Of a stretch of DNA of 64,000 nt, positions 9,247 through 33,379 are shown one piece after another; position 1 is the stretch's first letter, and the number at the start of each line of letters is the position of its first letter. Below the pieces are notes generated by a model. It was given only the letters and a program-made list of their open reading frames with translations. It did no database searches and was not told where the DNA came from. The position numbers were made by a program, and so were the translations under genes. Source of the stretch: Victivallaceae bacterium (GTDB taxonomy: Bacteria; Verrucomicrobiota; Lentisphaeria; Victivallales; Victivallaceae); the NCBI GenBank assembly GCA_045532655.1, contig JAZSGI010000203.1, forward strand, positions 1,469 to 65,468, given 5' to 3'.

Positions 9247-9491
9247 GATTCTTACTCCTCTTCTCTTGTGTTTCTGTCTGCCGCCGGTTAAAATACCTGT
9301 TCAGACATTTTTTCTCCATCTCCACAGCTAAAATACACCCCGCTTACAGATTTGTCAAGTGAGGTGATTTCAAAAATCTTCAAAATTGTTAAAGCTCCTC
9401 CGCTTCGATCTGCAAAGGGAGCTTTCGGGGGGATCGATCATTATAAAACCGGAAAGACAGGGAAAAAACGTTAAAATATGTTCAAATCGTG

Positions 9492-9520
9492 TTGCTAAAA
9501 CCTTTGAATAGTGCTATATT
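9492..9520 (+). promoter_or_regulatory. Sigma-70-like promoter candidate for the htrA operon
   Basis: TTGCTA (9492-9497), a 17-nt spacer, then TATATT (9515-9520), about 28 nt upstream of the ATG at 9549. AGGAG lies upstream of that start. Confidence 0.35.
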
Positions 9521-9548
9521 GCTTTACAACAGAAAAACAGGAGAAAAG

Positions 9549-10898: not shown

Positions 10899-10903
10899 AA
10901 ATT

Positions 10904-15390: not shown

Positions 15391-15394
15391 TTTT

Positions 15395-16360: not shown

Positions 16361-17025
16361 AATATACCTCTGTATTGATTTATATCCGGTTCATGACCGG
16401 GGATTATTTTCACGCCCTCTGCGGCGTATTTGCTGAATACTGCACTGTGCGGGTTCATCCCGTCAAGTGCGGCTTGTGTATAGGCGGCATCGGCAGTCAG
16501 GAGAAACCTTCCTTTCCCGGTATTTATCAGCAGCGATTGATGTCCCGGCGTGTGTCCGGGTGTAAAGATAAGCTGTACGGAGCCGTCATTGTAAAGATCA
16601 CAGCTGCCATTTACCTGTATACATCTTTCTGCCGGGAAATCCGGATCATGACAACATTCGAGTTCCTGCTGCTGAATAATGATGCGGGCAGAGGGAAAGT
16701 CCTGTATTCCGGCGGCATGGTCACTGTGGAGATGGGAAAGGATTATATATTTGACACTTTCAGGAGTGATGGAGAAGTGTTTCAGGATATTTACAGCTTT
16801 TTCCTCTTCACTCATCATGGTGATGAAAGGTTCATCCGCACCTTGAACGCACGCAGAAGGTGTCTGCCCCGAATCAAAAAGTACCACTTCGTCCCGGTGT
16901 TTTATCAGATAAAACGGTACCGGTACAATGATACGCTCTGCTGCAGAAGCACCCTGTACCAGCAAATCCTTCCGGGCATTGATAAAGCCGGAAAAGAAAC
17001 ACTCAAATTCCTTTACTGCTGCCAT
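16348..17025 (-). CDS. MBL-fold metallo-hydrolase (lactonase-like)
   Basis: 225 aa. H-x-H-x-DH motif SHLHSDHAAG, and a later TPGHTPGH. The size and layout resemble AHL-lactonase-type enzymes. It overlaps both neighbours by 13 nt. Confidence 0.7.
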   Translation of the reverse strand: MAAVKEFECFFSGFINARKDLLVQGASAAERIIVPVPFYLIKHRDEVVLFDSGQTPSACVQGADEPFITMMSEEEKAVNILKHFSITPESVKYIILSHLHSDHAAGIQDFPSARIIIQQQELECCHDPDFPAERCIQVNGSCDLYNDGSVQLIFTPGHTPGHQSLLINTGKGRFLLTADAAYTQAALDGMNPHSAVFSKYAAEGVKIIPGHEPDINQYRGILCMQ

Positions 17026-18038
17026 TCTGTATATCCTGATGCAGCCAGAATGACCCTGTGGGTGAGCAGGTCATGATCTGCGGTATAAACTGTTTCTGTT
17101 TCTTCGCCCTTGATCATTGCTGCAAACTTCAGCAGCTGTTCCCTGTACCGGTCAAATACCGGCGGGAAGGAGATGGTATGTTCTCCGGCAGGGAAATTCC
17201 CGGCAGGTTTTGTCAGCAGTAATTTGATTTTATTTCCTTGCCCGTCGAAACGTTCCAGTGGAGAAAAGGTTATTGCTCCTGTTATCCCGGTGATTTTCAT
17301 ACTGCGTGTGGCGATACAACCGGGTGTTTTGCCGCAAACATTGATTTTGGCAAAAGCGTCGGGATATTCCAACAGGGCAAAACAATTGTTACGGCTCTCC
17401 GGAGGGTCGCCGGGGACAGAACGGAGGAATGAGCTGATTTTGTCCGGATTCCCCATGGCTGCGACAATGAAATCCAGCAAATGACAGCCGAGATTATACA
17501 TGATCCCTCCGGCAAATCTGCTTATATATTCCCGGTATGGTTCACCTCCGTAACAGTGGTTCATATCGCACTCAATGGATATGACTTCTCCGATGATTTT
17601 CTCTTTTATTGCCTGCAGGGAGAATTGGAAAGCCGGATTACCCCGGAACATGTAAGCTATTTGAAAAGGTATGTTTCTCTGTTGGCAGAGGTTGCGCAAC
17701 TCTGTGAAAAGCTCCATGTTTTCTCCCGCAGGTTTATCCATGTGTACCGCGATACCTTTGCGGGCAAAGGTGAGTGATGCTGCCACAAGTTCGTTGTTTG
17801 GAGTTTCCACATTTACTGCCTGCAGATCCGGCATGTCAAGAACTTCCTGCAGGGTAAGTTCCGGCAAGCCGTTGTATATGGGCTGGAGAGTATTGACAAC
17901 ATGCGGGGTGGAGGCATTTTGCAAATCATTTACATAGCCGGCAACTTCAAAGACATCATCCATGCCCAGCAATGTTGTCATTTTGCCTTCGGCATGTTCG
18001 TGGGTCACTCCTATTTGTACGATTTTGATTTTTTGCAT
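17013..18038 (-). CDS. Gfo/Idh/MocA family oxidoreductase
   Basis: N-terminal Rossmann start MQKIKIVQIGVTHEHA, then EKPAG-like MDKPAGEN. Start at the ATG at 18038, preceded by AGGGG. The longest ORF reaches 18059. Confidence 0.8.
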   Translation of the reverse strand: MQKIKIVQIGVTHEHAEGKMTTLLGMDDVFEVAGYVNDLQNASTPHVVNTLQPIYNGLPELTLQEVLDMPDLQAVNVETPNNELVAASLTFARKGIAVHMDKPAGENMELFTELRNLCQQRNIPFQIAYMFRGNPAFQFSLQAIKEKIIGEVISIECDMNHCYGGEPYREYISRFAGGIMYNLGCHLLDFIVAAMGNPDKISSFLRSVPGDPPESRNNCFALLEYPDAFAKINVCGKTPGCIATRSMKITGITGAITFSPLERFDGQGNKIKLLLTKPAGNFPAGEHTISFPPVFDRYREQLLKFAAMIKGEETETVYTADHDLLTHRVILAASGYTEWQQ

Positions 18039-18055
18039 ATTACAGCCCCTGTTGT

Positions 18056-19075
18056 TCATTTGTCAATATCACGCCAGTCAAAAAGATTACCGAGGGGCGG
18101 ATCTTTCAGGGTGGAAAGCTCATGAAATACCTGTTGGCAATCCCGGGGCGAGACCACTTGGGTTATCACCGGAGCAACTTGCAGTCTGCCTGACTGCACC
18201 AACTTGAAAAAGGTTGCATAATCATCTTTTTCGCTCCAACCTGTTGCGGTTCTGTCGACGTTGGGACGGGCAAAGGTATGACAACCAAGTAACTGTATGC
18301 CGCGCCGGTGAACATATTTATAAAAATCTATAGTCTGATCTGATGTCCTTGTACAGCCCAGTAGTGCTATTCTGCCGCCGAAAGCAACACATTCCAGAGC
18401 TTGCTGCAGGGCATTGATATAACCTGTTACCTCAACCACGCACTCAACACCATTTCCCCCCGTGACCTCAAGTACCTTGTTGATGTAATCAGTGTCGGCA
18501 GGATCAAAAGCATGATCTGCCCCCAGTTTCAGGGCAAGCTCCCTGCGGTAGGGGGAATGGTCACTTACTATAACCGGATAAGCTCCGGCGATCCGTGCCA
18601 GCTGACCGGCAAATATTCCCAGTAATCCCTGACCGGCTATGAGACATGCCTCGCCCAACTGGATATTCAGTTTTCTTATTGCCAGGAGGGGGAAGCAGCA
18701 GAGGTGTGCCGCAGCTGCATCCTGCATACTGATACCGTCGGGGATTGGCATGATATTATGTCTTGCATCGAATAGCATGCGTGAACAGTGCCCCTGCCAT
18801 GCTGTTATTACTTTGTCTCCGGGTTTTAAATTTTTTACTTCGCTGCCGGTGTCAAGAACTGTGCCTGAAGCAGAGTACCCCATTCTTATGGGGAAATTAT
18901 TTCCTGCAGTTCCTGTATTGGGCAAACCCCGGTAATTTGCAAGTTCTGTGCCGGTACTGATAAGGTCGTACTCCGTTTTTACAAGAACCTCAAAGGGGTT
19001 GAGATTTCGTTCTATGTTTTCTGTACACAGTTCAGCCTTTTCTTTTGCGGTGAATAAAACTGTTGAAATTTGCAT
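18056..19075 (-). CDS. Zinc-type alcohol/polyol dehydrogenase (MDR family)
   Basis: 339 aa. GTELANYRG, GYSASGTV and the nucleotide-binding AGQGLLGIFAGQLARIAGA are typical of the sorbitol/threonine dehydrogenase-like subgroup. Confidence 0.8.
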   Translation of the reverse strand: MQISTVLFTAKEKAELCTENIERNLNPFEVLVKTEYDLISTGTELANYRGLPNTGTAGNNFPIRMGYSASGTVLDTGSEVKNLKPGDKVITAWQGHCSRMLFDARHNIMPIPDGISMQDAAAAHLCCFPLLAIRKLNIQLGEACLIAGQGLLGIFAGQLARIAGAYPVIVSDHSPYRRELALKLGADHAFDPADTDYINKVLEVTGGNGVECVVEVTGYINALQQALECVAFGGRIALLGCTRTSDQTIDFYKYVHRRGIQLLGCHTFARPNVDRTATGWSEKDDYATFFKLVQSGRLQVAPVITQVVSPRDCQQVFHELSTLKDPPLGNLFDWRDIDK

Positions 19076-19233
19076 GGCATGACTCCTTTGGTTTCTGGCT
19101 TACTATACTTCGGAAAAAACGATAAACAAGGGAGGAAAATTTTTTTTGCAGAAAAATTTCATGCAACAATTGATTTGATTTCGTAAAAATTTGTGATATA
19201 TTGAAACATTATCAGAAAATGGAGAAACAGTTT

Positions 19234-20211
19234 ATGAATATTCGGGAAATCGCTGCCGCTGCCGGAGTATCTCCGGCTACAGTATCAAGAGTTTTTAACA
19301 GAAATCCCGGAGTCAGTCCTGCTGTTGCGGAACGTGTATTGCAGGCGGCGCGGGAAAATAATTATCATCCCCGTATGCCGGAAAAACAGAAAAATGTGGT
19401 ACTCATAACCCCATACAACAATATTTATCCGGTACAGAGCTGTATAGATATGCTGCTTATGGAATTGGCGCAGGTATTGCCCAAAGCCGGATTCCGTGTG
19501 GAGATACTGCCGGTAAACAGTATTGAACGACTTGCAGAAATAAGCTTCTGCGGAGCTGTTGCAGTTGGGATCGACCCTCATGAATTAAGCGGTTGGGACA
19601 GCCGTTACGGTACTCCGCTTATTTTTCTGGACAGACATCCTGCGGAGAACGCAGCAAAAGAGTATAATGTGTGTTATGTGAATTCCGATGAAACAATGGG
19701 GATGGAACTTGCTCTCGATCATCTTGCCGGTCGCGGATGTTGTAAAATCGGTTGTATCATTCACGGCGAACCCGGTGAAGGTAATTGTTCCATCCGCTAC
19801 CGGGCAATTGCAGACTGGTTTCAGAAAAAATCCATCCCTTTTGATGAACGTCTTGTTCTTTTTGCCGGAAATGACAGTGGCAAATATGTGGAGCTGACCG
19901 GAAAATTACTGAAGTACGGATGCGATGCTCTTTTCTGTCCCGGAGGCAATGCCGGAATAACTGTATTGTATGCGCTGTCGCTTTACGGGAAAAAGGTTCC
20001 GGAAGATATTTCACTCATAGCTTCGGAGCAAAGTTTCTTTTCCAAATACGCTGTTCCGCCACAGACTGCTGTTACCCAGCAGTACGATCTTGTGGCTGCT
20101 GCTGTGGTAAAAGTTTTGCAGCAAAGCATGTCCGGAACTCCTGTGTCTGCAGTCACAACTTTACCGTACCGCCTGATACACAGAGAGAGTGTCAGACCGG
20201 AACTGTATTAA
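19234..20211 (+). CDS. LacI family transcriptional regulator
   Basis: HTH motif MNIREIAAAAGVSPATVSRVFN followed by a periplasmic-binding-protein-like sugar-binding fold. GGAGAA lies 8 nt upstream. It is divergent from the 14.6-19.1 kb operon. Confidence 0.85.
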   Translation: MNIREIAAAAGVSPATVSRVFNRNPGVSPAVAERVLQAARENNYHPRMPEKQKNVVLITPYNNIYPVQSCIDMLLMELAQVLPKAGFRVEILPVNSIERLAEISFCGAVAVGIDPHELSGWDSRYGTPLIFLDRHPAENAAKEYNVCYVNSDETMGMELALDHLAGRGCCKIGCIIHGEPGEGNCSIRYRAIADWFQKKSIPFDERLVLFAGNDSGKYVELTGKLLKYGCDALFCPGGNAGITVLYALSLYGKKVPEDISLIASEQSFFSKYAVPPQTAVTQQYDLVAAAVVKVLQQSMSGTPVSAVTTLPYRLIHRESVRPELY

Positions 20212-21050
20212 AGGGTTGGCGTATATTTACGGCCTTTGGTTTTACGGAACTCTGCCGGAGATACGCCGGTTGCCCGCCGGAAACTTCTGGAAAATGCAAA
20301 AGGGTGTTCATAACCGCACATATTTGCTATAGTTTTTATGGGATACTCTGTCAGCAGTAAAAGTTCTTCCGCCAGTTCCAGACGGAACTTTTTCAGCAGC
20401 TGAAACGGGGATATACCATAATGTTTACGGCAGAGTGCAAAGAAGTAAGAAACTGATATCCCGCAGTAATTTGCCATCTTTTCCACACTCCATTCCTCTT
20501 GCGGATGCAGGTGCATCCTATTTTTCAGCATTTGAAATACTGTTTTGCTGCCGGAGGAGCGTAACTCCTCTTCCAGCAGGGCAAAGAGCAGACGGCCGAG
20601 GGGACGGCGGATCGATTCGGAGTTTTCTCCGGCATCAATACCGGCGGCTTTGGTCAGCAGCTGCCAGATGAGTTCAGGATCTTTGGCTTTGCCATGTCTG
20701 AATACAGGATCTCCCCATACAGAATCCGGGGTGAGCAGGAGAAAGAAACTTTGACATTTCACAGCAGAGGATATTTTCTGTATACCGCCTGCTGGCATTA
20801 TAAGGATTTCTCCGGCCTTCAGGATGCCGGATGTATTTTCGTAGGTGTAATTGAATTCTCCGCGGCGGCAGTAAAGTACATTATGACGTTTTGATTCCGG
20901 GTAAGTTACCATATACCCGGGGGTATATGAACATACTCCTGCCATAAAAATGTTTTTACCGAAATATTCTTTGCCGCCGAGAGAGGAAAAGTCAACGAAC
21001 CGTTCAGAACTTCCTGGTGGAATAAAAATAGTTTTGGTTAGGTTTTTCAT
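20208..21050 (-). CDS. AraC family transcriptional regulator
   Basis: 280 aa. N-terminal cupin-like sensor (ILIMPAGG) and a C-terminal double HTH (WSVEKMANYCGISVSYFFALCRKHYGISP...IANMCGYEHPFAFSRSFRRATGVSPAEFR). It is divergent from abfA. Confidence 0.85.
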   Translation of the reverse strand: MKNLTKTIFIPPGSSERFVDFSSLGGKEYFGKNIFMAGVCSYTPGYMVTYPESKRHNVLYCRRGEFNYTYENTSGILKAGEILIMPAGGIQKISSAVKCQSFFLLLTPDSVWGDPVFRHGKAKDPELIWQLLTKAAGIDAGENSESIRRPLGRLLFALLEEELRSSGSKTVFQMLKNRMHLHPQEEWSVEKMANYCGISVSYFFALCRKHYGISPFQLLKKFRLELAEELLLLTEYPIKTIANMCGYEHPFAFSRSFRRATGVSPAEFRKTKGRKYTPTL

Positions 21051-21072
21051 ATTTATTGCCTGCAGGTTTTTT

Positions 21073-21101
21073 TTGAATATTCAGAATATATGTCATATAT
21101 T
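21073..21101 (+). promoter_or_regulatory. Sigma-70-like promoter candidate for the abfA-GRE operon
   Basis: TTGAAT (21073-21078), a 17-nt spacer, then TATATT (21096-21101). The region is AT-rich and contains the palindrome GAATATTC. Chance matches are plausible in AT-rich DNA. Confidence 0.3.
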
Positions 21102-21145
21102 AATATAGTTTGATATAACGATAATGCAAAAAAGCGAGGCTGTTT

Positions 21146-22669
21146 ATGAAAGCAAAATTGACAGTAAATAAGAACTTCACTATCGGTGAAGCCGATAAAA
21201 ATATTTTCGGCGGGTTCCTTGAGCACCTCGGCAGATGTATATATAATGGTATTTATGAGCCGGAGCACGAACAGGCAGACGAAAACGGCTTCAGAAAAGA
21301 TGTCATCGAACTGGTAAGAGAACTTGATATGCCTTTGACCCGTTATCCCGGCGGTAACTTTGTTTCCGGTTATGACTGGAAAGATGGCATCGGCCCTGTA
21401 GAAAAACGTCCTGTGCGTGCAGATTACGCCTGGAAGTCCCTTGAACCGAATCTTGTGGGGATAGATGAGTTTATAAAGTGGTGCCGTCTGGCTGGTACAG
21501 AACCGGTCTATGCAGTAAATATCTGTACCAATACTCCCAAAGCTGCACAGGAGCTTGTGGAATATTGCAATTCTTCCAAAAACAGCTATTGGAGCAATAA
21601 ACGCCGGGAAAATGGTTCAGAGGCTCCTTACAACATCCGTTACTGGTGTCTGGGCAACGAGGTTGACGGGGAGTGGCAGATAGGACATATGACTTCGCAG
21701 GAATACGGCCGTGCGGCTCATGAAGCCGCCAAAATGATGCGTATGGTCGATCCGGATATCAAACTTTGCGCCTGCGGGTCATCTACTTGCGGTATGCCGA
21801 CATACGGTACATGGGACAGGGAAATAATGGAACATCTTTTTGACGATGTCGATTATCTTTCCATACATATGTATTTCCGTAATGATTTCAAAAATATTCC
21901 TGAATTTCTCGCTTCAGCCGAGAGTGTTGATCAGGGTATAGAAAATGCTGTTGCCTGCTGTGATCATGTTGCCGCCTGCCGCAAATCAGCCAAAAAGATT
22001 ATGATTGCCCTTGATGAGTGGAACGTCTGGTATCGCGGCAGTACCCATGTTGCTGATGATGCCGAATGGGTTTACGGCAAGCCGCTTAATGAAGAGATCT
22101 ATGATATGGCAGATGTACTTGTTAACGGCGGGGTGCTTTTGAGTATGCTTGATCATGCAGACCGCCTTAAAGTTGGATGCCTTGCCCAGACCGTAAATGT
22201 CATTGCCCCGATCATGACCCGTACGGGAGGCGGTGCATGGCGGCAGACGATTTTTTATCCTTTCCGGGAGACTTCAAAGTATGGCAGAGGGACTGTCCTG
22301 CGCGGGGCGGTTGATTCTCCTGAATACAGCATTAAAAATCACTTTTCAAGGGACCCGGCGGAAACAAGTGTAAAATATCTCCGGGCAACCGCTGTATGGC
22401 GCAAAGAGGCTGGAGAAATTACGGTATTTGCCATCAATCGTGCCGGTGAGGAAATGGATTTTGAAGCCGTTCTCGGCGATTTTGAGGTCGAAAGTATTGT
22501 TGCAGCCTCAGAGATACATCACGATTCTCTTGATGCCGTCAATACAGGGACGGAAGAACAGGTTCGTCCCGCAGAAATAGACGGCAGCCGGTATTCACTT
22601 GCAGGAAATGTATTGCAGGCACAACTTAAACCATATTCATGGAACATGTTCAGAGTAAAGGTGGGATGA
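21146..22669 (+). CDS. abfA: Alpha-L-arabinofuranosidase, GH51
   Basis: 507 aa. The N-terminus (IFGGFLEHLGRCIYNGIYEP, RYPGGNFVSGYDWKDGIGP) and WCLGNEVDGEWQIGH (acid/base Glu context) are typical of GH51 AbfA. Confidence 0.9.
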   Translation: MKAKLTVNKNFTIGEADKNIFGGFLEHLGRCIYNGIYEPEHEQADENGFRKDVIELVRELDMPLTRYPGGNFVSGYDWKDGIGPVEKRPVRADYAWKSLEPNLVGIDEFIKWCRLAGTEPVYAVNICTNTPKAAQELVEYCNSSKNSYWSNKRRENGSEAPYNIRYWCLGNEVDGEWQIGHMTSQEYGRAAHEAAKMMRMVDPDIKLCACGSSTCGMPTYGTWDREIMEHLFDDVDYLSIHMYFRNDFKNIPEFLASAESVDQGIENAVACCDHVAACRKSAKKIMIALDEWNVWYRGSTHVADDAEWVYGKPLNEEIYDMADVLVNGGVLLSMLDHADRLKVGCLAQTVNVIAPIMTRTGGGAWRQTIFYPFRETSKYGRGTVLRGAVDSPEYSIKNHFSRDPAETSVKYLRATAVWRKEAGEITVFAINRAGEEMDFEAVLGDFEVESIVAASEIHHDSLDAVNTGTEEQVRPAEIDGSRYSLAGNVLQAQLKPYSWNMFRVKVG

Positions 22670-24720
22670 TGAACGGACGGATAAAAAATCTCAGAGAATA
22701 TATTCTTGACGGCAAACACCGCAACTGCCGCCGTACAGTTGATTGGCATCTGGCAGAAGATTTTGCCGCTGCCGGATTTACACCGTTGGAACGTTCTGTA
22801 AGGGCTTTGGAACATGTCCTTGCCGCAGAATGTCCGGCATTTATTCCGGAGAGCCGCATAGTATTTATGCGTACAGTCGCCAATCTTCCGGATTTATATA
22901 CGGCGGAGGAAATGACGGAATTGCGCAAAAAATATACTTTTTGCGAAAAAGGAGTACCATTTAATTTCACTCCGGATTATGCTTCGGTATTGGATATCGG
23001 ACTTGATGCATTCCGGGAAAAAATCCTCAATACAATGAAGGAATGTGATGAAGATGGCAGGGCGTTTCTTGCCGCATCTCTGCGCGGACTTGATGCTCTG
23101 ACCGCTCTTGTTGACAGGTATATCGCTGCTGCGGCGGAACAGGGGCTGAATGACGCTGTCGGGTTATTGAAAAGTGTCAGGCACAGAGCTCCGGAAACTT
23201 TTCCTGAAGCAATGCAGCTTTTCCGTATTCTCCATTACGCATTGTGGTGTGAAGGCGGATATCATATGGGTATAGGCAGAGTTGATGTGATTTTCCGCAA
23301 ATATTATGAAAGTGATATTGCTTCCGGCCGGTATACCGCAGAGGAGGAATTTGATTTCCTTGAAGAATTTTTCCTTACTTTCAATATAGACAGTGACCTT
23401 TATGTAGGCGTACAACAGGGGGATAATGGTCAGAGTCTGATGATCGGCGGCTGCGACAGCCGGGGTGATGATATCTGGAATCCGTTGAGTGAAAAAATAC
23501 TTGAAGCATCATGCGAACTTAAACTGATCGATCCGAAAATAAATTTTCGTGTCAACAGCAGCACCCCGGTGGAACGTCTTGCGCTCGGCAGCCGTTTGAC
23601 CCGTGCCGGATTGGGTTTCCCCCAATATTCAAATGATGATATTATGCTGCCGGCTCTGGAAAGCTGGGGGTATTCACCGGAGGACGCCCGTGATTATTCC
23701 TGTGCTGCATGCTGGGAACTGATCATTCCCGGCAAAGCATGTGAATTTGTTAATCTTGATGCCGTTTCCATTCCCGGAGTTTTGCTGGAATGTATGGACT
23801 CCCGGGCTGCTGATTTCGAAGAATTCTGCACACTTTTCCGCCGTAAGTTACGGCAGAAAACAGAGGCTGTCGTTGCCAAATATTCCAATGTTTCGGTATT
23901 GCCATCTCCCTTTGTTTCTGCCTTGTGTCCTGTTGCTTTGAGCTGCGGACGGAATATCAATGAAGCAGGTATTTATCATAACTGGGGAATGCACGGTTCC
24001 GGCATGGCTGTTGCGGCAGATTCACTGGCAGCGTTGGAGGAAATGGTTTACAGAAAGAAGATGATCTCCCTTGCTGAAATGAAAAATCTTCTGGACAGAG
24101 ATTTTGCCGGAGATGAGGAATTCCGTACCGGATTGCGTGAAAACTGTTCAAAACTCGGAGGCAAAGAACCTGAAAATGCCGAAAAGATGCTTGCCATGCT
24201 CCTGCAGTGGTGGGCGGAGGCATGGAAGGGGTTGAAAACTCCCGAGGGCGGGGTTATTCGTCCGGGGACAGGCAGTGCCATGTATTATATATGGCACAGT
24301 TCAGGGTTGGGGGCAACTCCCGACGGCAGAAAAGCCGGTGAACCCTTCCCGGCAAATTTTTCTCCGTCATTGGATATACCATTGGCAGGACCTCTTTCGG
24401 TGATCCGTTCTTTTGCGCTGCCGGAGATTGCCGGAGCGTGTAACGGGGGACCATTGACAATAGAACTCCATGACAGTGTATTTTCTGCGGACGATGCAGA
24501 GTTGAAAGTCGCTCACCTTATTGCTGAATTCATCCGCCGCGGAGGACATCAGCTGCAGTTGAATACTGTAAACAGTACAATTTTGCGGGAGGCGCAGCTG
24601 CATCCGGAACGTTACAAAAATCTGATCGTGAGGGTTTGGGGCTGGAGCGGCAGATTTGTGGAACTGGACAAAGTCTATCAGGATCATATTATCCGCAGGA
24701 GTGAATTGTCTTTTGGATAA
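22666..24720 (+). CDS. Glycyl radical enzyme, PFL2/dehydratase-like (eliminase-type), unusually short at 684 aa
   Basis: C-terminal glycyl radical motif NLIVRVWGWSGRFVELDKVYQDHIIRRSE. Cys loop ARDYSCAACWELIIPG, with Glu at Cys+2. GRE core motifs NGQSLMIGG and GFPQYSNDD. The N-terminus (RIKNLREYIL) is typical of the family. Its ATG (22666) overlaps the abfA TGA (22667-22669). Confidence 0.85.
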   Translation: MMNGRIKNLREYILDGKHRNCRRTVDWHLAEDFAAAGFTPLERSVRALEHVLAAECPAFIPESRIVFMRTVANLPDLYTAEEMTELRKKYTFCEKGVPFNFTPDYASVLDIGLDAFREKILNTMKECDEDGRAFLAASLRGLDALTALVDRYIAAAAEQGLNDAVGLLKSVRHRAPETFPEAMQLFRILHYALWCEGGYHMGIGRVDVIFRKYYESDIASGRYTAEEEFDFLEEFFLTFNIDSDLYVGVQQGDNGQSLMIGGCDSRGDDIWNPLSEKILEASCELKLIDPKINFRVNSSTPVERLALGSRLTRAGLGFPQYSNDDIMLPALESWGYSPEDARDYSCAACWELIIPGKACEFVNLDAVSIPGVLLECMDSRAADFEEFCTLFRRKLRQKTEAVVAKYSNVSVLPSPFVSALCPVALSCGRNINEAGIYHNWGMHGSGMAVAADSLAALEEMVYRKKMISLAEMKNLLDRDFAGDEEFRTGLRENCSKLGGKEPENAEKMLAMLLQWWAEAWKGLKTPEGGVIRPGTGSAMYYIWHSSGLGATPDGRKAGEPFPANFSPSLDIPLAGPLSVIRSFALPEIAGACNGGPLTIELHDSVFSADDAELKVAHLIAEFIRRGGHQLQLNTVNSTILREAQLHPERYKNLIVRVWGWSGRFVELDKVYQDHIIRRSELSFG

Positions 24721-25453
24721 ATCAGAGGTCAGAGGAATCATCGGGGAAATCAGGGAATTTTGTCTTCATGACGGGCCCGGAGTAAGGACGACTCTTTTTT
24801 TGAAGGGGTGTCCTCTCCGCTGTCCATGGTGTCATAATCCTGAATTCATCCGACCTGGCGTTGAAACGGGTGTTGCCCGTTATTATACTGCATCGGAAGT
24901 TGCAAAATTGATTTTGCGGGACAGGAATATTCTGGAGACATCCGGTGGCGGTGTGACTTTTTCCGGGGGGGAAGTTCTTATGCAATGGGAATTTGCTTCT
25001 GCGATTGCCGGACTTTTGCAAGGGTTGCATATTGCAGTGGAAACCTCCGGATTTGCTTCTGCCGCCATCTATTCATCCATGCTTGACCAATGTGATTTTA
25101 TTTTTCAGGACATCAAATGCATGGATGAGGAGCTGCATAAACGTCTGACCGGAGTCGGCAACAGGCAGATATTGGAAAATTTACGTTTGCTGCAGAGATC
25201 CGGCAGACCGTATATCATCCGTATGCCTTATGTTCCGGGGTTCAATGATATTACCGGCGAAGTGGAGGCTCTTGCCCGTTTTTTGAGTTCTGCTCCCGGC
25301 AACCTGCAAAAAGTGGAAATACTGCCTTACCATGCCGGAGGTGTAAGCAAATTAAAAAAAATGGGAGTTCCGGTGCCGCCGGGCTTACAGGCAGAAGATG
25401 GTACGGTGCCGGAGGTTGTAAAGAAGATTTTGTCTGAATACGGGCTGCCGTGA
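24713..25453 (+). CDS. Glycyl radical enzyme activating enzyme (radical SAM)
   Basis: GPGVRTTLFLKGCPLRCPWCHNPE (CX3CX2C), with GGGVTFSGGEV as the SAM-binding motif. The start is uncertain. I prefer TTG 24713 (AGGAG 11 nt upstream), which gives 246 aa. In-frame GTG 24701 and ATG 24656 also exist. Confidence 0.85.
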   Translation: MDKSEVRGIIGEIREFCLHDGPGVRTTLFLKGCPLRCPWCHNPEFIRPGVETGVARYYTASEVAKLILRDRNILETSGGGVTFSGGEVLMQWEFASAIAGLLQGLHIAVETSGFASAAIYSSMLDQCDFIFQDIKCMDEELHKRLTGVGNRQILENLRLLQRSGRPYIIRMPYVPGFNDITGEVEALARFLSSAPGNLQKVEILPYHAGGVSKLKKMGVPVPPGLQAEDGTVPEVVKKILSEYGLP

Positions 25454-25524
25454 AGCCGGAACTTCTTTGCCCCCGCTTGACTTTTTCTGTAAACAGGTGT
25501 ATCTTAATCGAAAAAAGGAAATAT

Positions 25525-26925
25525 ATGGATACACTTCTCCGTGTGATCGGATGTATAAACGAATATCTCTCTGATTATGTCCTCCTGTTTTTATTGATCG
25601 GCGCCGGACTCTGTTTCAGCTGGCGCACCCGTTTTGTGCAGGTGCGCTGCCTCGGCGAAGGGTTCCGTAATGTTTTCGGTACTTTTTCCCTTAACGGGAA
25701 AAGCCGCAAAGGAGGCTTGAGTCCTTTTCAGGCTCTGACCGCCGCTGTTGCCGCCCAAGTGGGAACAGGCAATATTGTCGGTGCAGCTGGGGCAGTGATC
25801 ACCGGCGGCCCCGGAGCGATCTTCTGGATGTGGATAATCGCTTTTCTCGGTATGGCGACAATTTATGCCGAGGCGGTGCTGGCCCAGAACACTAAAGTTA
25901 CTGAAGCCGATGGCAATATACATGGCGGACCGGTCTATTACATCAAAAAGGCTTTCCCTAACTGGGCGGGGCGATTTATGGCGGTGTTTTTTGCTGCTGC
26001 AACTGTGATCGGTGTCGGATTTACCGGATGCATGGTGCAGGCCAATGCGATAGGTGCTGCGTGTCATGACGCTTTCGGTGTGCCCTCCTGGGTGATCGGA
26101 GTTTTGCTGGCACTGGCGGGCGGGGCGATTTTTATGGGCGGTGTTACCCGGCTTGCCAAAGTGACGGAGAAACTTGTTCCGGCGATGGCGATCCTTTATC
26201 TTGCGGGTGGATTTTATATTCTGGCAATGCGTTGGCAATATCTTCCGGAAACTTTCTGGATCATAATAAAATATGCATTCGATCCTGCTGCACTTATCGG
26301 CGGCAGTATCGGCTATGCTTTGAAAACTGCCGTGAGTCAGGGGGCGAAACGAGGGCTTTTTTCCAATGAGGCCGGTATGGGAACTACACCTCATGCTCAT
26401 GCAGCGGCACGGGGGACAGTACCCCATGTGCAGGGGACTGTTGCCATAATCGGGGTATTTATTGATACGGCGGTGGTATTGACCATGACGTCCTTTATTA
26501 TCATATCTGTTTTTTATGTCGGCGACGGTCCGCTTGCGCTTGCTGACGGCAGTACCTACTCCGGTTTGCTTGCCGCCAGTGGGCTTACCCAGACAAATCT
26601 TGTGGCAGAGGCAGTGGCATCTGTTACCACCGTGGGATTCGGAAGGGTGTTTGTGGCGGTTTGTCTTCTGTTTTTTGCCTTTTCCACAATAATCAGCTGG
26701 AATTATTTCGGCAGGATCAATATGCAGTACCTTTTCGGGCAGAAGTCATTAAAAATATATTCACTTATTGCCGTACTCTGTATTTTTGCCGGGACACTGC
26801 TGAAAAGCGATCTTGTCTGGGCGCTGCAGGATATGTGCAATCAGCTGATAGTTCTGCCCAATATTGCCGCTTTGCTGGTTCTTGGCCGCATCGTTGCAGA
26901 GGCTTCAAAACAAAAAGAACAATAA
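25525..26925 (+). CDS. Sodium:alanine/glycine symporter (AGCS) family transporter
   Basis: Multi-TM protein with the AGCS signature region SPFQALTAAVAAQVGTGNIVGAAGAV and GLFSNEAGMGTTPHAHAAA. The ATG at 25525 is preceded by AAGGAA. The longest ORF starts at 25450. Confidence 0.85.
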   Translation: MDTLLRVIGCINEYLSDYVLLFLLIGAGLCFSWRTRFVQVRCLGEGFRNVFGTFSLNGKSRKGGLSPFQALTAAVAAQVGTGNIVGAAGAVITGGPGAIFWMWIIAFLGMATIYAEAVLAQNTKVTEADGNIHGGPVYYIKKAFPNWAGRFMAVFFAAATVIGVGFTGCMVQANAIGAACHDAFGVPSWVIGVLLALAGGAIFMGGVTRLAKVTEKLVPAMAILYLAGGFYILAMRWQYLPETFWIIIKYAFDPAALIGGSIGYALKTAVSQGAKRGLFSNEAGMGTTPHAHAAARGTVPHVQGTVAIIGVFIDTAVVLTMTSFIIISVFYVGDGPLALADGSTYSGLLAASGLTQTNLVAEAVASVTTVGFGRVFVAVCLLFFAFSTIISWNYFGRINMQYLFGQKSLKIYSLIAVLCIFAGTLLKSDLVWALQDMCNQLIVLPNIAALLVLGRIVAEASKQKEQ

Positions 26926-26961
26926 ATACGCTCCTGCAAAAGCGGAGCAGAAAGGATTTTT

Positions 26962-27594
26962 ATGACAAAAACTATTGTTTTTCAGGGTGATTCCATTACC
27001 GATGCCGGTCGCAGTTATGATGCATCTCTGCCTGCCAATACTTTGCTGGGCGGCGGATATGTCTGTACAACGGCTGTTGATCTTGCCGCTTATGAACCGG
27101 AAAAGGAATGGCAAGTCTATAACCGTGGTATAAGCGGCAACAGGGTGGTGGATCTTTATGCAAGATGGAAGGTGGATGCCCTGAATTTGCGTCCTGATAT
27201 ATTGAGTATTCTTATCGGTGTCAATGATCTGTGGCACGAAATTGATTTCAAGAATGGTGTGGAAGTACCCCGTTATGATACTTTTTACCGCATGATCATG
27301 GATTGGACACGCAAAGAATTGCCGGAAACAAAAATTATTCTTATAGAGCCTTTTGTGCTTGTTACCGGTGCAGTTACAGAAGATTGGCTGGACGATATAA
27401 ACGCCCGCAGAGAAGTCGTGAAAAAAATTGCAGAGGATTATGGTACTTTGTTCCTTCCGGCACAGAGTGTTTTTGACGAAGCCTGCAAACGTGCTCCTGC
27501 AAGTTACTGGCTGCAGGATGGAGTACACCCCACTTCATGGGGACACAGGCTCCTGGCAGATGCCTGGCTGAAAGCAACTGAAAGTATCCGCTGA
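26962..27594 (+). CDS. SGNH/GDSL hydrolase (esterase)
   Basis: Block I IVFQGDSITDAG, block III GVNDLW, and block V DGVHPTSWGH. Confidence 0.8.
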   Translation: MTKTIVFQGDSITDAGRSYDASLPANTLLGGGYVCTTAVDLAAYEPEKEWQVYNRGISGNRVVDLYARWKVDALNLRPDILSILIGVNDLWHEIDFKNGVEVPRYDTFYRMIMDWTRKELPETKIILIEPFVLVTGAVTEDWLDDINARREVVKKIAEDYGTLFLPAQSVFDEACKRAPASYWLQDGVHPTSWGHRLLADAWLKATESIR

Positions 27595-27612
27595 TTCATT
27601 TTGTTGTTATCG

Positions 27613-27657
27613 GGCTGTTGCAAAACCTCAAAAAAAGGCAGGCAACAGCCTTTTTTT
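27613..27657 (+). terminator. Rho-independent terminator ending the abfA-GRE-symporter-esterase operon
   Basis: GGCTGTTGC (27613-27621) pairs with GCAACAGCC (27642-27650) and is followed by TTTTTTT (27651-27657). Confidence 0.6.
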
Positions 27658-28691: not shown

Positions 28692-28822
28692 ATTTCCCCC
28701 TTGTTTTGTAGCCGGAATAAATATAATATTAAAAATGGAGCTTTGCAAGAAAAAAATTGCAATTTTCAATTTTTTGTATTATATTAAAAGAAAAACAACA
28801 ATATATTACAGAGGGAAAACAG

Positions 28823-29482
28823 ATGACAGATAATTACGGCGTTATTTCAGCCATCAACGGTTTTACCAAAACATTTATCAATGCAATTATGGCAGGGATC
28901 TTTATCGGTATTGCAGGGACGGTTTTCCTCTCCGTGCCGTCAGCACCGCTAGGGGCGTTTCTCTTTGCTTTCGGATTGCTGACCATTCTCTGTTATCAGT
29001 TCAAACTTTTTACCGGAGCTATAGGTTATCTTGCCAATCAGGGGAAAAAATCCCCCGGTTATCTTATAACCATGCTGGCAATATGGACAGGGAACCTTGC
29101 AGGATGTTTTGCCGTGGGAACACTGGTGCGCTGCAGCCGTATTGCCGGGAATATAGTGCCGAGAGTACAGGGCATGTGCCAGGTCAAACTTGGGGATTCT
29201 TTCGCAAGTTTGCTGATATTATCCTTTTTTTGCGGGATACTTATGTATGTTGCAGTGGAAACTTTCCGCAAAGAAGAGATAAATCCCTTTGCCCGTACGC
29301 TTATGGTTTTTCTCTGTGTGGTGATCTTTATCCTTTCCGGCTTTGAACACAGTATTGCCGGGATGTACTATTTTTCTGCTGCCGGGATGTGGGGCTGGCA
29401 GGCTCTTGCGGCAACAGGTATTATGACTCTTGGCAATGCTCTTGGGGGCATGCTGCTGCCGATGGCGGATAAAATAAGGTGA
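28823..29482 (+). CDS. Formate/nitrite transporter (FNT) family channel, short form
   Basis: 219 aa. FINAIMAGIFIGIAGTVFL, the FNT signature FEHSIAGMYYF, and C-terminal TLGNALGGMLLP. GAGGGA lies upstream of the ATG at 28823. Confidence 0.75.
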   Translation: MTDNYGVISAINGFTKTFINAIMAGIFIGIAGTVFLSVPSAPLGAFLFAFGLLTILCYQFKLFTGAIGYLANQGKKSPGYLITMLAIWTGNLAGCFAVGTLVRCSRIAGNIVPRVQGMCQVKLGDSFASLLILSFFCGILMYVAVETFRKEEINPFARTLMVFLCVVIFILSGFEHSIAGMYYFSAAGMWGWQALAATGIMTLGNALGGMLLPMADKIR

Positions 29483-30555: not shown

Positions 30556-31314
30556 TTATTTACTTGCGCCACTGCATGGGAGCCATTCCGCCCAAAGCAG
30601 TGTTGCATCGGTGTTGATTTTGTAAAAATTGCCTCTGGGAACGAAAATCATTGCCTGCAGACTGCTTATTCCCAAACATTGCTGGGTGTCTCCAACAGCA
30701 TTATTTTCGTTACCATCTTTCCAAGTGATGATTTCAAGATACTGCCCTGCGGTTGAAGCATTGACATGCGCCGAGAGCCAGCCGTCTGTCAGTGCTTGCG
30801 CCGTGGTGTTTACCGCGGTGATCTGCGTACCGGAATGATAGCCGCACCACCCCAAAGCAATATTCTTTCCTGTGTCAGAAACATTATCCAAATGTGTATC
30901 TGCCGGATTAGGACAAACCGGAATAAACACGCCCCCGATTTCAATACCATCAGCTCCGGTCTCCGGTGCGGCTTCCGGTATATCAACGGTCGTATCTTCA
31001 GGAGTAACAACATCGTCACCACCATCATCACCACTATCACTGCCCCCGCCGGGATAAACAGCAACATTGGGTTCTTTACCCACAATGCCATTTATTCCGA
31101 TCTGATATTTGCCGAGGGGCGAACCTGTTGAAGGTGCTACATAATGCGCCATTGTGCCGGGAAATCCGACATACATGCAATAAATACCGTCACTTGATGC
31201 CGTGATATAGGTTGTGCCGTTTTCATTAGCATAATAGGGATGCCCGTTAGCTGTTCCGGCTTCTCTGAATATACCTGAAAATGGTGTATCGGCACTGGTT
31301 GAATATAAATCCAT
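30556..31314 (-). CDS. Hypothetical protein, paralog A of a tandem pair (tail-fibre-associated?)
   Basis: 252 aa with no signal peptide. It shares with paralog B an acidic Gly/Asp linker and a C-terminal module: FIPVCPNP-DTHL--VSDTGKNIALGW...QALTDGWLSAHV...GQYLE...FVPRG-FYK...WLPC-GAS. The RBS GGGGGA precedes the start. Confidence 0.6.
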   Translation of the reverse strand: MDLYSTSADTPFSGIFREAGTANGHPYYANENGTTYITASSDGIYCMYVGFPGTMAHYVAPSTGSPLGKYQIGINGIVGKEPNVAVYPGGGSDSGDDGGDDVVTPEDTTVDIPEAAPETGADGIEIGGVFIPVCPNPADTHLDNVSDTGKNIALGWCGYHSGTQITAVNTTAQALTDGWLSAHVNASTAGQYLEIITWKDGNENNAVGDTQQCLGISSLQAMIFVPRGNFYKINTDATLLWAEWLPCSGASK

Positions 31315-31326
31315 CTTGTTTCCCCC

Positions 31327-32088
31327 TTATTCACTTGCCCCATTGCACGGCAGCCACAGTGTTTTAACAAGAGTGGCATTGCTTCGCACTTTGTAAAACA
31401 TCCCTCTGGGTACAAACATCATTGCCCGGAGATCACCGCTTGAATATGAATATCTGGTATTGCCGTAACGATGTTCGGAATCATTGTCACCACGATAAAC
31501 CAGTAATTCAAGATATTGTCCTCCAGCAGTCGCTGTTACATGTGCCGAGAGCCAACCGTCTGTCAGTGCCTGAAATTGCACATCAAGTCCGGTTATATCC
31601 ACTCCGTCACCAAAACCGAGCCATCCCAGCGCAATATTCTTCCCTGTATCAGAAACTTTGCTCAAATGGGTATCGACAGGGTTTGGACAAACCGGAATAA
31701 ACATATTTCCGACCTTAAGGCCTTTTTCGCCAACTTCGGGAGTTGAATCCGGCACAATAATGGTCGTATCTTCGGGGTCAACGACACCGCCGCCGGAAGT
31801 GTCCTCTGTGTATTCCGTAACTGTCGGGCCGGGAATGGTTGAAGTAGCCTGCCCCCATGAACCGGCTATATCGTCTGCACTAGAGTTTGAGAACATCCAC
31901 AAGGGTGGAGTCCCGCCCAGCGGTGTCCCCAAATAGTGCACATACATGCCGGGAGTAGTTTGCATCGTCCAAATATAATATTCACGGCTCTCGTGCTTGT
32001 ATGCAGGGAAGCCATTGTATGCCCCGCTCTCACGGTAAATACCAGCCGCCTCATGAACGGCAGTAAAAGTAACCTTATAACTTGCCAT
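31327..32088 (-). CDS. Hypothetical protein, paralog B of a tandem pair
   Basis: 253 aa. See paralog A. The RBS GGAGG lies inside the 3-prime end of the collagen-like gene, and there are 2 nt between that gene's stop and this start. Confidence 0.6.
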   Translation of the reverse strand: MASYKVTFTAVHEAAGIYRESGAYNGFPAYKHESREYYIWTMQTTPGMYVHYLGTPLGGTPPLWMFSNSSADDIAGSWGQATSTIPGPTVTEYTEDTSGGGVVDPEDTTIIVPDSTPEVGEKGLKVGNMFIPVCPNPVDTHLSKVSDTGKNIALGWLGFGDGVDITGLDVQFQALTDGWLSAHVTATAGGQYLELLVYRGDNDSEHRYGNTRYSYSSGDLRAMMFVPRGMFYKVRSNATLVKTLWLPCNGASE

Positions 32089-32090
32089 AA

Positions 32091-33314
32091 TTACGCCTCC
32101 GTCTTATCGTACTTCAAAGCATAACTCATTCCGTCAGCTCCGGTAACAGTGGCAGTCTTTGATGTTGTATCAACCGCCGTAACGGTGCAGAACTGCACAT
32201 CAACAGAACCGCCGCCGGAGGTTGTACCCCCTTGCGGAATACCGAAAGCAAAGCTGAAAACCTTTGCCGTGTTTTCTCCGGAAGTTGTGACTGACACTGT
32301 GGGAGAAGCTCCTGCCGGAAGTGTTGTTACTGCTGCAGTTGGTATGCCGAACCCGGCAGGTGTTCCATCCGCACCGTCCGCTCCGGTATCGCCTTTTTCA
32401 CCTTTAAGCGACGCAAGCCATTCGAGGCAGGAACCGGCGTATCCATTATTGACAGCTACTTCGTAAGCATCGGCGCCATCCTTGCCTTTTTCGCCTTTGT
32501 CGCCTTTTTCGCCGGGAATGCCGGGAACTCCGGTATCTCCTCTGTCGCCCTTTTCGCCTGTTGCACCTGTATCGCCTTTGTCGCCTTTTTCCCCTTTTGT
32601 TCCTGTTGCACCAGTTGCACCTGGTTCTCCTGTATCACCTTTGTCGCCTTTACTGCCTTTTTCGCCCAGGGCACTGATGCCGGTATCTTTATTGCCGATA
32701 AACCAGTTGCCGGAAAGAGGATCAATCTGTGGAGTTTCTCCGTGAGGCAAAGTCAGCCAATCGCTCCAGACACCGTCTTCCGCCATTCTGATACGGAAAC
32801 TTCTGTGGTCAGGGCTTTGTTCAGTTTTCAGTCCGGCACGGAACATAGCCTTAACTTGAGTCATGGAAACATTGTCTGCGGCAAGTGGAAGTTCAGCTCC
32901 GCCGTGATAATCTGCAACAGCATGTGCGGTAACAGGAATCCGGAAACGCCATATACATTTGCCGTCAGCATCCATGCCGTATATTTCCAGAATCGTTTCC
33001 AGTTCATAATTACGGCTCATGGAAACTGCTTTCCGGAACGATGCTGTTGTACATTCCACACGGCACGAAATTATTCCGTTCCTGGTTTGGGAACGGTCAA
33101 ATTTATCATCAGTGATCCTGACAAGCGGCGGTCGGGAAGAATTGACAAATTCAGCAACGGCTCCACGCCATGCTGCAGCATCGGAGAGGTCGCAGAAATT
33201 TTCTGTTTCTGCAAAAACATGTATATCCAGATCAATACAATCCCCGCACCCCAGCCGCAACGGAGTGGCGGTAAAATCCTCCGATCCCCACGAAACAGTG
33301 ACTTGTTTTTTCAT
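32091..33314 (-). CDS. Collagen triple-helix repeat protein, phage tail-fibre-like
   Basis: 407 aa from the ATG at 33314 (AAGGAG 7 nt upstream). It has 21 uninterrupted G-X-Y triplets (GEKGSKGDKGDTGEPGATG...), a second short run, and the phage-fibre-style junctions SGNWFIGNKDTGISALGEKG and AYEVAVNNGYAGSCLEWLASLKGEKGDTG. Confidence 0.8.
   Translation of the reverse strand: MKKQVTVSWGSEDFTATPLRLGCGDCIDLDIHVFAETENFCDLSDAAAWRGAVAEFVNSSRPPLVRITDDKFDRSQTRNGIISCRVECTTASFRKAVSMSRNYELETILEIYGMDADGKCIWRFRIPVTAHAVADYHGGAELPLAADNVSMTQVKAMFRAGLKTEQSPDHRSFRIRMAEDGVWSDWLTLPHGETPQIDPLSGNWFIGNKDTGISALGEKGSKGDKGDTGEPGATGATGTKGEKGDKGDTGATGEKGDRGDTGVPGIPGEKGDKGEKGKDGADAYEVAVNNGYAGSCLEWLASLKGEKGDTGADGADGTPAGFGIPTAAVTTLPAGASPTVSVTTSGENTAKVFSFAFGIPQGGTTSGGGSVDVQFCTVTAVDTTSKTATVTGADGMSYALKYDKTEA
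32475..32666 (-). repeat. Imperfect 9-nt periodic coding repeat (G-X-Y collagen run)
   Basis: The DNA reads as reiterated ggcgacaaaggc / ggcgaaaaaggc-type units on the coding strand, encoding residues G230-G293 of the track ORF. Confidence 0.8.
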
Positions 33315-33379
33315 ATTTTGCTCCTTGTGAAAATAAACCAGGGCAAAAATCAACTGTCGTTTGGGGGAACGGAATATCT

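Follow-up and report, generated by a model that had tools for sequence, protein, structure and literature searches.

Glycyl radical enzymes (GREs) of the eliminase/isomerase class are defined by a Cys-x-Glu motif, according to a 2026 review (PMC13450708). For glycerol dehydratase, the mechanism given there assigns deprotonation of the C1 hydroxyl to Glu435 and protonation of the leaving hydroxyl to His164 (PMC13450708). The only characterised sugar-acting GREs are YbiW/PflD (8ID7, 8ID0, 8YJO), which use Cys-x-Glu to cleave a ring C-O bond; they are isomerases of 1,5-anhydroglucitol-6-phosphate and 1,5-anhydromannitol-6-phosphate, with an aldolase step downstream (PMC13450708). Here we describe a compact Cys-x-Glu GRE of 684 residues, encoded with its activase on a 64,000-nucleotide stretch from a Victivallaceae bacterium (contig JAZSGI010000203.1; this whole stretch is "the window" below). 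We suggest, with a probability of about 0.5, that it is a C-O-cleaving enzyme directed at a sugar.

The protein matches PF02901 (the barrel) at 234 bits and PF01228 (the glycyl radical domain) at 52.5 bits against a cut-off of 22.2. The motifs SCAACWE and RVWGWSGRF, which an earlier note had read from the letters of the window, are both present: CAACWELI contains Cys349 and Glu351, and VRVWGWSGRF contains Gly659. Across 100 family sequences C349-W350-E351 is invariant and Gly659 is kept in 99, the remaining row being a gap. Cys349 and Glu351 align with Cys433 and Glu435 of glycerol dehydratase. Given these motifs and the pairing of the two genes, we predict that the GRE forms a glycyl radical with its cognate activase. 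An AlphaFold model built from 32 family sequences (pLDDT 88.8, pTM 0.89) superposes on all solved eliminase and isomerase structures with TM-scores of 0.86-0.89, at identities of no more than 24%, and the GRE is therefore a full barrel in trimmed form. Relative to glycerol dehydratase its N-terminus lacks about 60 residues, because residue 129 of that enzyme aligns with family residue 68, and a number of its loops are shorter as well.

The short length is genuine. An independent check of length came from Logan contig SRR17418349, from an unrelated sequencing run, which carries the same order of GH51, GRE, activase and symporter genes at 99% identity. The 120 best database homologues are all 678-722 residues long and, excluding one 99% copy, 47-64% identical; an assembly artefact or truncation was rejected on these grounds. 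The compact size had been put forward as unusual, and it is short compared with characterised GREs. However, a library of representatives at 50% identity holds further compact GRE clades of 650-750 residues, 27-37% identical and with related ACWE and RVWG[WF]S motifs, so compactness is not unique but a property of a wider unexplored branch. One compact homologue, P0163 (681 residues, 30% identity), has neither the catalytic Cys ("VSSRGEP") nor the radical Gly ("RLWSSGVPF") and may be either inactive or an enzyme that uses an aminoacyl radical.

We placed the GRE relative to characterised enzymes by its scores against curated models and by profile scores against structures in the PDB. No curated GRE model was reached, as expected for the uncharacterised subfamily that the earlier note had proposed. 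The best, TIGR01774 (PFL2/glycerol dehydratase family), gave 257.3 bits against a cut-off of 678.2. The HypD, CutC, HpfG, HpsG, PflD-type, HPAD and IAD models gave 141-221 bits (148-221 for the first five) against cut-offs of 1000-1150 (PflD-type 221 against 1109, HpfG 198 against 1000, HypD NF043068 196 against 1100, CutC 167 against 1050), and membership of any characterised GRE clade was rejected on these results. The pyruvate formate-lyase (PFL) model TIGR01255 gave 44.4 bits against 994, and Ala348-Cys349 stands where PFL has a Cys-Cys pair. When the family profile was scored against solved structures, the highest values went to glycerol dehydratase with 362 bits, propanediol dehydratase with 348 and PflD of E. 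coli (8yjo) with 340; CutC and HypD came close behind, and PFL was far lower at 90 bits. Two PDB entries named formate acetyltransferases (38la and 38lb, 687 and 739 residues) were rejected as relatives; at 41-46 bits to the family profile they represent a different lineage.

Glycerol dehydratase of C. butyricum (1R8W/1R9D) and propanediol dehydratase of R. inulinivorans (5I2G) have the same ten-stranded barrel as the family (TM-score 0.86-0.88) and share its Cys-x-Glu loop, the spacing to the PG turn and an RVxG glycyl loop; the logic of radical 1,2-elimination is probably common to all three. Compared to these dehydratases, the family GRE is only 24% identical and about 100 residues shorter, its Gly loop reads RVWGWSG, and there is no microcompartment or aldehyde-processing context. 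The pocket, which we compared on profile alignments and alignment spacing, differs as well. The dehydratase loop "NGVGH" that holds His164/166 is replaced by an invariant "FN"-type loop (E94-K-G-V-P-F-N100-F-T-P-D-Y) in which there is no general-acid His and Asn100 is invariant. Asp447 of glycerol dehydratase becomes an invariant Asn363 and Tyr640 becomes Gly536 (98 of 100 family sequences), and the cavity should therefore be larger and polar. The family keeps the Glu but lacks the His, which points to a related radical chemistry whose substrate is another one, larger and polyhydroxylated.

In fold and profile score, YbiW/PflD resemble the family as closely as the dehydratases do, at 21-24% identity, and the His conserved in PflD is Asn here. 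Their pathway needs a kinase and an aldolase, both of which occur at some family loci. However, their substrates are sugar phosphates delivered by the phosphotransferase system, whereas the partners of the family are a sugar porter of the major facilitator superfamily (MFS), glycosidases and a mutarotase, which makes an unphosphorylated reducing sugar the likely substrate. HypD (6VXC) shares the Cys-x-Glu eliminase fold (TM-score 0.88) at 20% identity, but no proC was found among the scanned window ORFs and the family has no conserved amino-acid transporter.

Hundreds of homologues of about 685 residues, 43-64% identical, are present in the databases. Among the 120 best, those with names carry only the labels "pyruvate formate-lyase (family)" or "hypothetical protein", and all hits with a title came from metagenome-assembled genomes or other metagenome-derived assemblies. 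Using two family-specific peptides, GVQQGDNG and GFPQY[AS]ND, we found at least 583 relatives among GTDB species genomes, many of them metagenome-assembled genomes from gut or rumen. They belong to Lentisphaerae, Kiritimatiellae, Planctomycetes (Thermoguttaceae), Verrucomicrobia, Clostridia, Bacteroidales and Spirochaetes. Among the positions examined in the motif regions, 21 are 99-100% invariant across 100 members, including E94, G96, N100, W194, H200, Q250, D253, N254, Q256, A348-C349-W350-E351, N363, H443, G534, Y541, E600 and R656-x-W658-G659-W660-S661. Our search of the full-text literature found no description of this GRE family, to which no characterised GRE mentioned in the accessible part of the 2026 review belongs (PMC13450708). 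The family is thus of a known kind, a GRE, and differs in architecture, pocket, Gly loop, form of the activase and probable substrate class.

The activase has lost a domain that most of its relatives keep. In the review, only the activases of PFL and of class III ribonucleotide reductase are said to consist solely of the radical S-adenosylmethionine (radical-SAM) domain, and the ferredoxin domain of GRE activases is called unknown in both structure and function (PMC13450708). The window activase matches TIGR02494, the general GRE activase model, at 222.9 bits (cut-off 174.35) in two stretches around a gap, and fails the PflA model TIGR02493 (168.8 bits against 231.75). PflA (3C8F/3CB8) is a single radical-SAM domain of about 245 residues with one CX3CX2C cluster, and the window activase is collinear with 3c8f from end to end in one stretch; yet its sequence places it in the general GRE-activase family, where a ferredoxin-like insert is usual. 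Its description in the earlier note as PflA-sized is accurate for length, but it is not a PflA orthologue. The six Cys comprise the cluster motif CPLRCPWC (C33-X3-C37-X2-C40) and C17, C127 and C136, so that three lie outside the cluster, not two as the note had it; the note's statement that auxiliary-cluster cysteines are missing holds, since the motif CX2CX2CX3C occurs neither in the activase nor in any real open reading frame (ORF) of the window. A split-off ferredoxin gene was rejected for the same reason.

We aligned 46 activases that adjoin family GREs. About 30 keep a compact ferredoxin-like insert exactly at the gap, with two CX2CX2CX3C motifs or, in Clostridia, a seven-Cys variant, and about 15, including those of the window and its closest relatives, are without it. 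Because the relatives retain the insert at this position, the window activase is best described as a derived deletion form whose PflA-like size is convergent. Insert-less activases fall in at least four to five separate clades of a neighbour-joining GRE tree. The sister lineage of the window, L090 (56% identical GRE, also in the order GH51-GRE-activase), still has the insert. At two loci (L063, 7350-8996, and L105) two tandem activase-like ORFs lie upstream of one family GRE. An antisense ORF of 102 residues within the window activase gene is almost certainly spurious.

The GRE lies second among five ORFs on the same strand, which encode a GH51 alpha-L-arabinofuranosidase, the GRE, the activase, an AGCS symporter and an SGNH esterase; an AraC-type gene is divergent (Table 1). 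The overlaps of GH51 with GRE and of GRE with activase that had been reported are real. The first junction reads GGGATGATGAAC, in which the GH51 stop codon TGA (22667-22669) overlaps the GRE ATG at 22666. A second ATG at 22669 would give a protein of 683 residues and a 1-nucleotide TGATG overlap as in relatives. The activase start is most likely TTG 24713, judging from the letters around it: this codon lies 8 nucleotides before the end of the GRE stop codon, AGGAG is found at 24698-24702, and the N-terminus read from it aligns with those of relatives, whose activase genes overlap the GRE stop by 4 nucleotides. Overlapping stops and starts at both junctions are also kept in relatives. The hairpin of the terminator (-19.4 kcal/mol, z = -3.15) with its T run, the divergent AraC gene and the SGNH esterase are all as previously reported. 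In the control region, promoter-like hexamers at 21073-21101 and 21080-21109 are consensus-level matches only, and a ribosome-binding site precedes ATG 21146. An Rfam scan of the window found no riboswitch and no other RNA family. The genes are presumably co-transcribed, and the operon is probably a carbohydrate-utilisation unit under the divergent AraC-type regulator.

Table 1. Features of the GRE locus and of the rest of the window (positions are those of the window).
Feature	Position	Strand	Evidence
GH51 alpha-L-arabinofuranosidase (ArfA type)	21146-22669	+	NF051901, PF06964
Compact Cys-x-Glu GRE, 684 residues	22666-24720	+	PF02901, PF01228
GRE activase (radical SAM), 246 residues, TTG start, without ferredoxin-like insert	24713-25453	+	TIGR02494
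AGCS Na+/alanine-glycine symporter	25526-26925 (longest ORF from GTG 25450)	+	TIGR00835
SGNH/GDSL esterase, final gene of the unit	26962-27594	+	PF13472, 84.7 bits
Intrinsic terminator, 10-bp stem then U7	27612-27657	+	folding energy and sequence
AraC-family regulator, divergent from the operon	20208-21050	-	PF12833, 77.9 bits; PF00165
Intergenic control region	21051-21145	+	consensus scan and sequence
Antisense ORF within the activase gene, 102 residues	24722-25030	-	
FocA-like formate/nitrite transporter	28757-29482	+	PF01226, 90 bits
GH36 alpha-galactosidase with N-terminal NPCBM domain	24-2393	+	
Block directly upstream of the AraC gene	14620-20211	-	
Tandem paralogues and collagen-triple-helix-repeat protein	30556-33353	-	
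Protein with prepilin-type N-terminus	58302-58934	+	

The GH51 enzyme matches NF051901 at 676.6 bits (cut-off 625) and the GH51 C-terminal domain PF06964 at 125.5 bits. Its N-terminus, MKAKLTVNKNFTIGE, has no hydrophobic leader and no signal peptide. It is therefore expected to be cytoplasmic and would free L-arabinose in the cytoplasm beside the GRE.

To see which partners recur, we labelled the neighbours of family GREs by crude longest-ORF calling with BLAST and Pfam, collapsed loci with GREs at least 95% identical, and counted partners within four genes of the GRE at the 88 non-redundant loci with at least two neighbours. The activase was found at 52 of the 88, an MFS sugar porter at 22, a GH36/27-like protein at 15, GH51 at 12, a LacI regulator at 9 and an aldose 1-epimerase (mutarotase, GalM) at 8; at least one sugar-related partner was present at 44. 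The porter, XylE-like by TIGR00879, lies directly upstream of the GRE in 16 of the 22 cluster members, and a stand-alone module of MFS porter, GRE and activase is common. For the GH36/27-like proteins the nearest matches are Thermotoga GH36 alpha-galactosidase or enzymes of the raffinose-synthase type. A mutarotase adjoins the GRE at six loci, which points to a reducing sugar with anomer specificity.

The earlier note had suggested linkage of the GRE to both GH51 and the symporter, and the first of these links is borne out. The order GH51-GRE-activase is shared by the window and seven relatives and is absent in P0002/P0004; the closest clade, at 56-64% identity, keeps the link to GH51. The divergent AraC gene is likewise found at P0009, one of these seven loci, and at that of a 61%-identical relative. 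In distant clades the same genes recur in other orders: activase-GRE-GH51 at two loci, GH51-activase-GRE at one, and GH51-GalM-MFS-activase-GRE in Prolixibacteraceae, where the GH51 has a signal peptide. The GRE-adjacent GH51s span 24-72% GH51 identity. Because the adjacency is both repeated and rearranged, we regard it as good evidence of a functional link, and we take the conserved core to be three genes: a cytoplasmic GH51, the compact GRE and its activase.

The symporter fares differently. It is an AGCS protein by TIGR00835 and PF01235, and matches the former at 398.9 bits (cut-off 272.65) from residue 45 of the longest ORF onwards. The ATG at 25526 has its own AAGGAA ribosome-binding site, lies 72 nucleotides past the activase stop and is preceded by a promoter-like site at 25477-25505 (consensus scan); an independent gene call on the 99%-identical contig uses the same start. 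From these signals the symporter is probably initiated separately rather than translationally coupled, contrary to what had been proposed. It adjoins the GRE only in the window species (the window and the 99%-identical contig), or 1 of the 88 non-redundant loci. The SGNH esterase of the window type is likewise found at 1 of 88, that of the window, and no homologue of it occurs at the other family loci. Both genes were rejected as conserved partners since neither recurs, and they appear as lineage-specific additions outside the conserved module. At four Clostridia loci the GRE-activase pair is flanked by leucine-rich-repeat surface proteins of the BspA type, and upstream of the GRE there are arrays of three to four tandem paralogues of about 350-400 residues with a weak GDSL-like N-terminal signature. 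These GDSL-like proteins were rejected as counterparts of the window esterase, being unrelated paralogue arrays beside BspA-like surface proteins.

Taken together, these observations lead us to favour a sugar as the substrate of the GRE, and we infer the type of bond cleaved, the product and the identity of the substrate from them. The activase, with its single [4Fe-4S] cluster and S-adenosylmethionine, would abstract a hydrogen atom from Gly659, and the resulting radical would generate a thiyl radical on Cys349. This thiyl radical could then take a hydrogen atom from the carbinol or hemiacetal carbon of a small neutral sugar while Glu351 deprotonates the neighbouring hydroxyl. The ketyl radical would expel the adjacent C-O substituent, through dehydration or opening of the ring, following the example of 1,2-eliminase and isomerase GREs, and Cys349 would return the hydrogen atom. 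In a version modelled on glycerol dehydratase, hydrogen would be taken from the anomeric carbon, Glu351 would act on the C1 hydroxyl, and loss of the C2 hydroxyl would give a 2-deoxy-aldonolactone. By analogy, ring-opening isomerisation as in YbiW/PflD is an equally possible outcome.

A reducing sugar is favoured, since a mutarotase makes sense only for such a sugar. At the window locus the substrate is most likely L-arabinose set free by the intracellular GH51, or else a galacto-configured sugar that resembles it very closely. GH51, GalM and the porter are all compatible with L-arabinose, and the GH27/36-like proteins could be so too if they are beta-L-arabinopyranosidases; that this sugar specifically is the substrate can be proposed only tentatively. 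D-galactose, which shares the C1-C4 configuration of L-arabinose, is the alternative. It is tempting to speculate that enzymes of about 685 residues with "AACWE / RVWGWSG / GVQQGDNGQ" form a new GRE class acting on a free reducing sugar (L-arabinose and/or D-galactose), and that its repeated loss in nature would show the ferredoxin domain of GRE activases to be dispensable, although we hold this broader idea to be doubtful. The reaction of such a class might be, for example, the radical dehydration of a hemiacetal to a deoxy-aldonolactone or a deoxy-ketose.

Several observations weigh against assigning a sugar to this enzyme. The assignment of the substrate is drawn from gene neighbourhood alone, and the neighbourhood counts come from a crude gene caller and BLAST labels. 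The loci derive from the 80 best hits and are therefore biased toward relatives of the query. Half of the loci have no sugar-related partner. An invariant active site implies one substrate, yet the partners point to L-arabinose through GH51 and to D-galactose through the GH36-like proteins. The usual general-acid His is absent, and a simple dehydratase mechanism would therefore need another proton donor. The downstream clues are a mixture that does not add up to one coherent pathway: a bona fide xylulokinase at L044, where it comes directly after the GRE (486 bits against a cut-off of 380), a glycerate kinase at two, a hydroxypyruvate-isomerase-like protein at one, a small HAD phosphatase at two, and a FucI-like isomerase with a class II (ketose-bisphosphate-aldolase-like) aldolase and an FGGY kinase at two more (L070 and L105). 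Finally, at five loci from Lentisphaerae and Verrucomicrobia the GRE (at about 8001-12061) has a tlyA-like rRNA methyltransferase gene on one side and a yciO/sua5-like gene on the other, and there is no activase in the vicinity; a sugar substrate does not explain this housekeeping-like setting.

Among the other explanations, a non-reducing neutral carbohydrate deserves most attention. Here the GRE would be an isomerase or dehydratase of an anhydro-sugar or polyol that the sugar porter imports, for example a pentitol or an unphosphorylated 1,5-anhydro-alditol. An FGGY kinase would phosphorylate its deoxy-ketose or deoxy-aldose product and an aldolase would cleave it, in a route that parallels the "anhydroglycolysis" of YbiW/PflD but starts from an unphosphorylated compound. 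The place of E. coli PflD among the top matches (340 bits, TM-score 0.88), the common module of porter, GRE and activase, the FGGY kinase and class II aldolase-like genes at L070 and L105, the xylulokinase at L044 and the YbiW/PflD chemistry with its aldolase step (PMC13450708) all agree with this scheme. However, the adjacent mutarotase and the retaining glycosidases (GH51, GH36-like) point to reducing sugars, the PflD-conserved His is Asn, the PflD-type NCBIfam model is far from reached, and we could link no natural source of anhydro-alditols to an arabinofuranosidase. We therefore consider this explanation unlikely.

It is less probable still that the enzyme dehydrates a short-chain diol (glycerol, 1,2-propanediol or ethylene glycol) that arises downstream of sugar fermentation. 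The B12-independent glycerol and propanediol dehydratases are its best matches (also Foldseek ranks 1-2), and the Cys-x-Glu motif is shared. Against this, three contact or catalytic positions of glycerol dehydratase are changed (His164 absent or Asn, Asp447 to Asn, Tyr640 to Gly), TIGR01774 is missed widely, and the enzyme resembles glycerol dehydratase hardly more than it does PflD, CutC and HypD. The context is also wrong for a diol: neither 1,3-propanediol or aldehyde dehydrogenase genes nor microcompartment genes are among the common neighbours in relatives or among the scanned window ORFs. The scan, which covered most ORFs of at least 100 residues, found no microcompartment shell, aldehyde dehydrogenase, proC or sulfite reductase gene, in agreement with the earlier note.

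Cleavage of a C-C bond in a keto-acid or keto-sugar, in the manner of a formate-lyase and with export of formate through the nearby formate/nitrite transporter (FNT) channel, is very improbable. This idea draws on the database name of the homologues, on the FocA-like gene (Table 1) and on the PflA-like single-domain architecture of the activase. However, the enzyme has an invariant Ala348 before Cys349 instead of a Cys-Cys pair, TIGR01255 is missed by a wide margin, and E. coli PFL is among the weakest full-length matches to the family profile. The FNT gene lies about 1.1 kb past the terminator, after an alpha/beta-hydrolase gene on the opposite strand, and was rejected as a partner since no such gene recurs beside the GRE at other family loci.

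The arabinose attached to hydroxyproline is for the most part beta-L-arabinofuranose, which is handled by GH127/GH121 and not by GH51, and this counts against material from arabinosylated glycoproteins. The earlier suggestion of such a substrate, or of a small amino acid imported by the symporter, can be all but dismissed: the symporter does follow the activase directly on the same strand in the window and the 99%-identical contig, and the characterised hydroxyproline dehydratases are also Cys-x-Glu enzymes (PMC13450708), but the family partners are sugar porters, alpha-galactosidase-like hydrolases and a mutarotase, the HypD model is far from reached, relatives with GH51-GRE-activase have no amino-acid transporter in the operon, and with a symporter that is confined to the window species and probably uncoupled both ideas lose their basis.

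Several further features of the window lie outside the operon. The GH36 alpha-galactosidase gene lies about 19 kb upstream of the GRE; in other genomes GH36-like genes often adjoin family GREs directly. The minus-strand block next to the AraC gene, which has a divergent LacI regulator, encodes a type I dehydroquinase-like protein, two Zn-dependent dehydrogenases, a metallo-beta-lactamase-fold protein and a Gfo/Idh/MocA oxidoreductase, and looks like a separate sugar or cyclitol oxidation unit. Further downstream are two tandem paralogues of about 252 residues without a Pfam match, followed by the collagen-triple-helix-repeat protein, and a protein with a prepilin-type N-terminus. Proteins of this kind abound in Lentisphaerae and Victivallales, in line with the taxonomy of the closest GRE homologues.

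Of the reactions that gut microbes perform without oxygen, the hardest fall to GREs, and this clade spans several hundred species. Its ties to the release and import of plant-cell-wall sugars yield a short, testable list of substrates. Activases with the insert and activases without it serve one GRE family, which amounts to an experiment by nature on the ferredoxin domain, for example in the window and L090, sister loci that differ only in the activase insert. Single-domain activases may also be easier to produce, and activase production is named as a main bottleneck in the review (PMC13450708). If our reading is correct, a sugar-acting GRE outside the phosphorylated anhydro-sugar case would be a new route in anaerobic fibre fermentation, and if the broader idea also holds, anaerobes of the PVC group, Clostridia and Bacteroidales would have a previously unknown, oxygen-independent entry into the catabolism of pentoses or hexoses.

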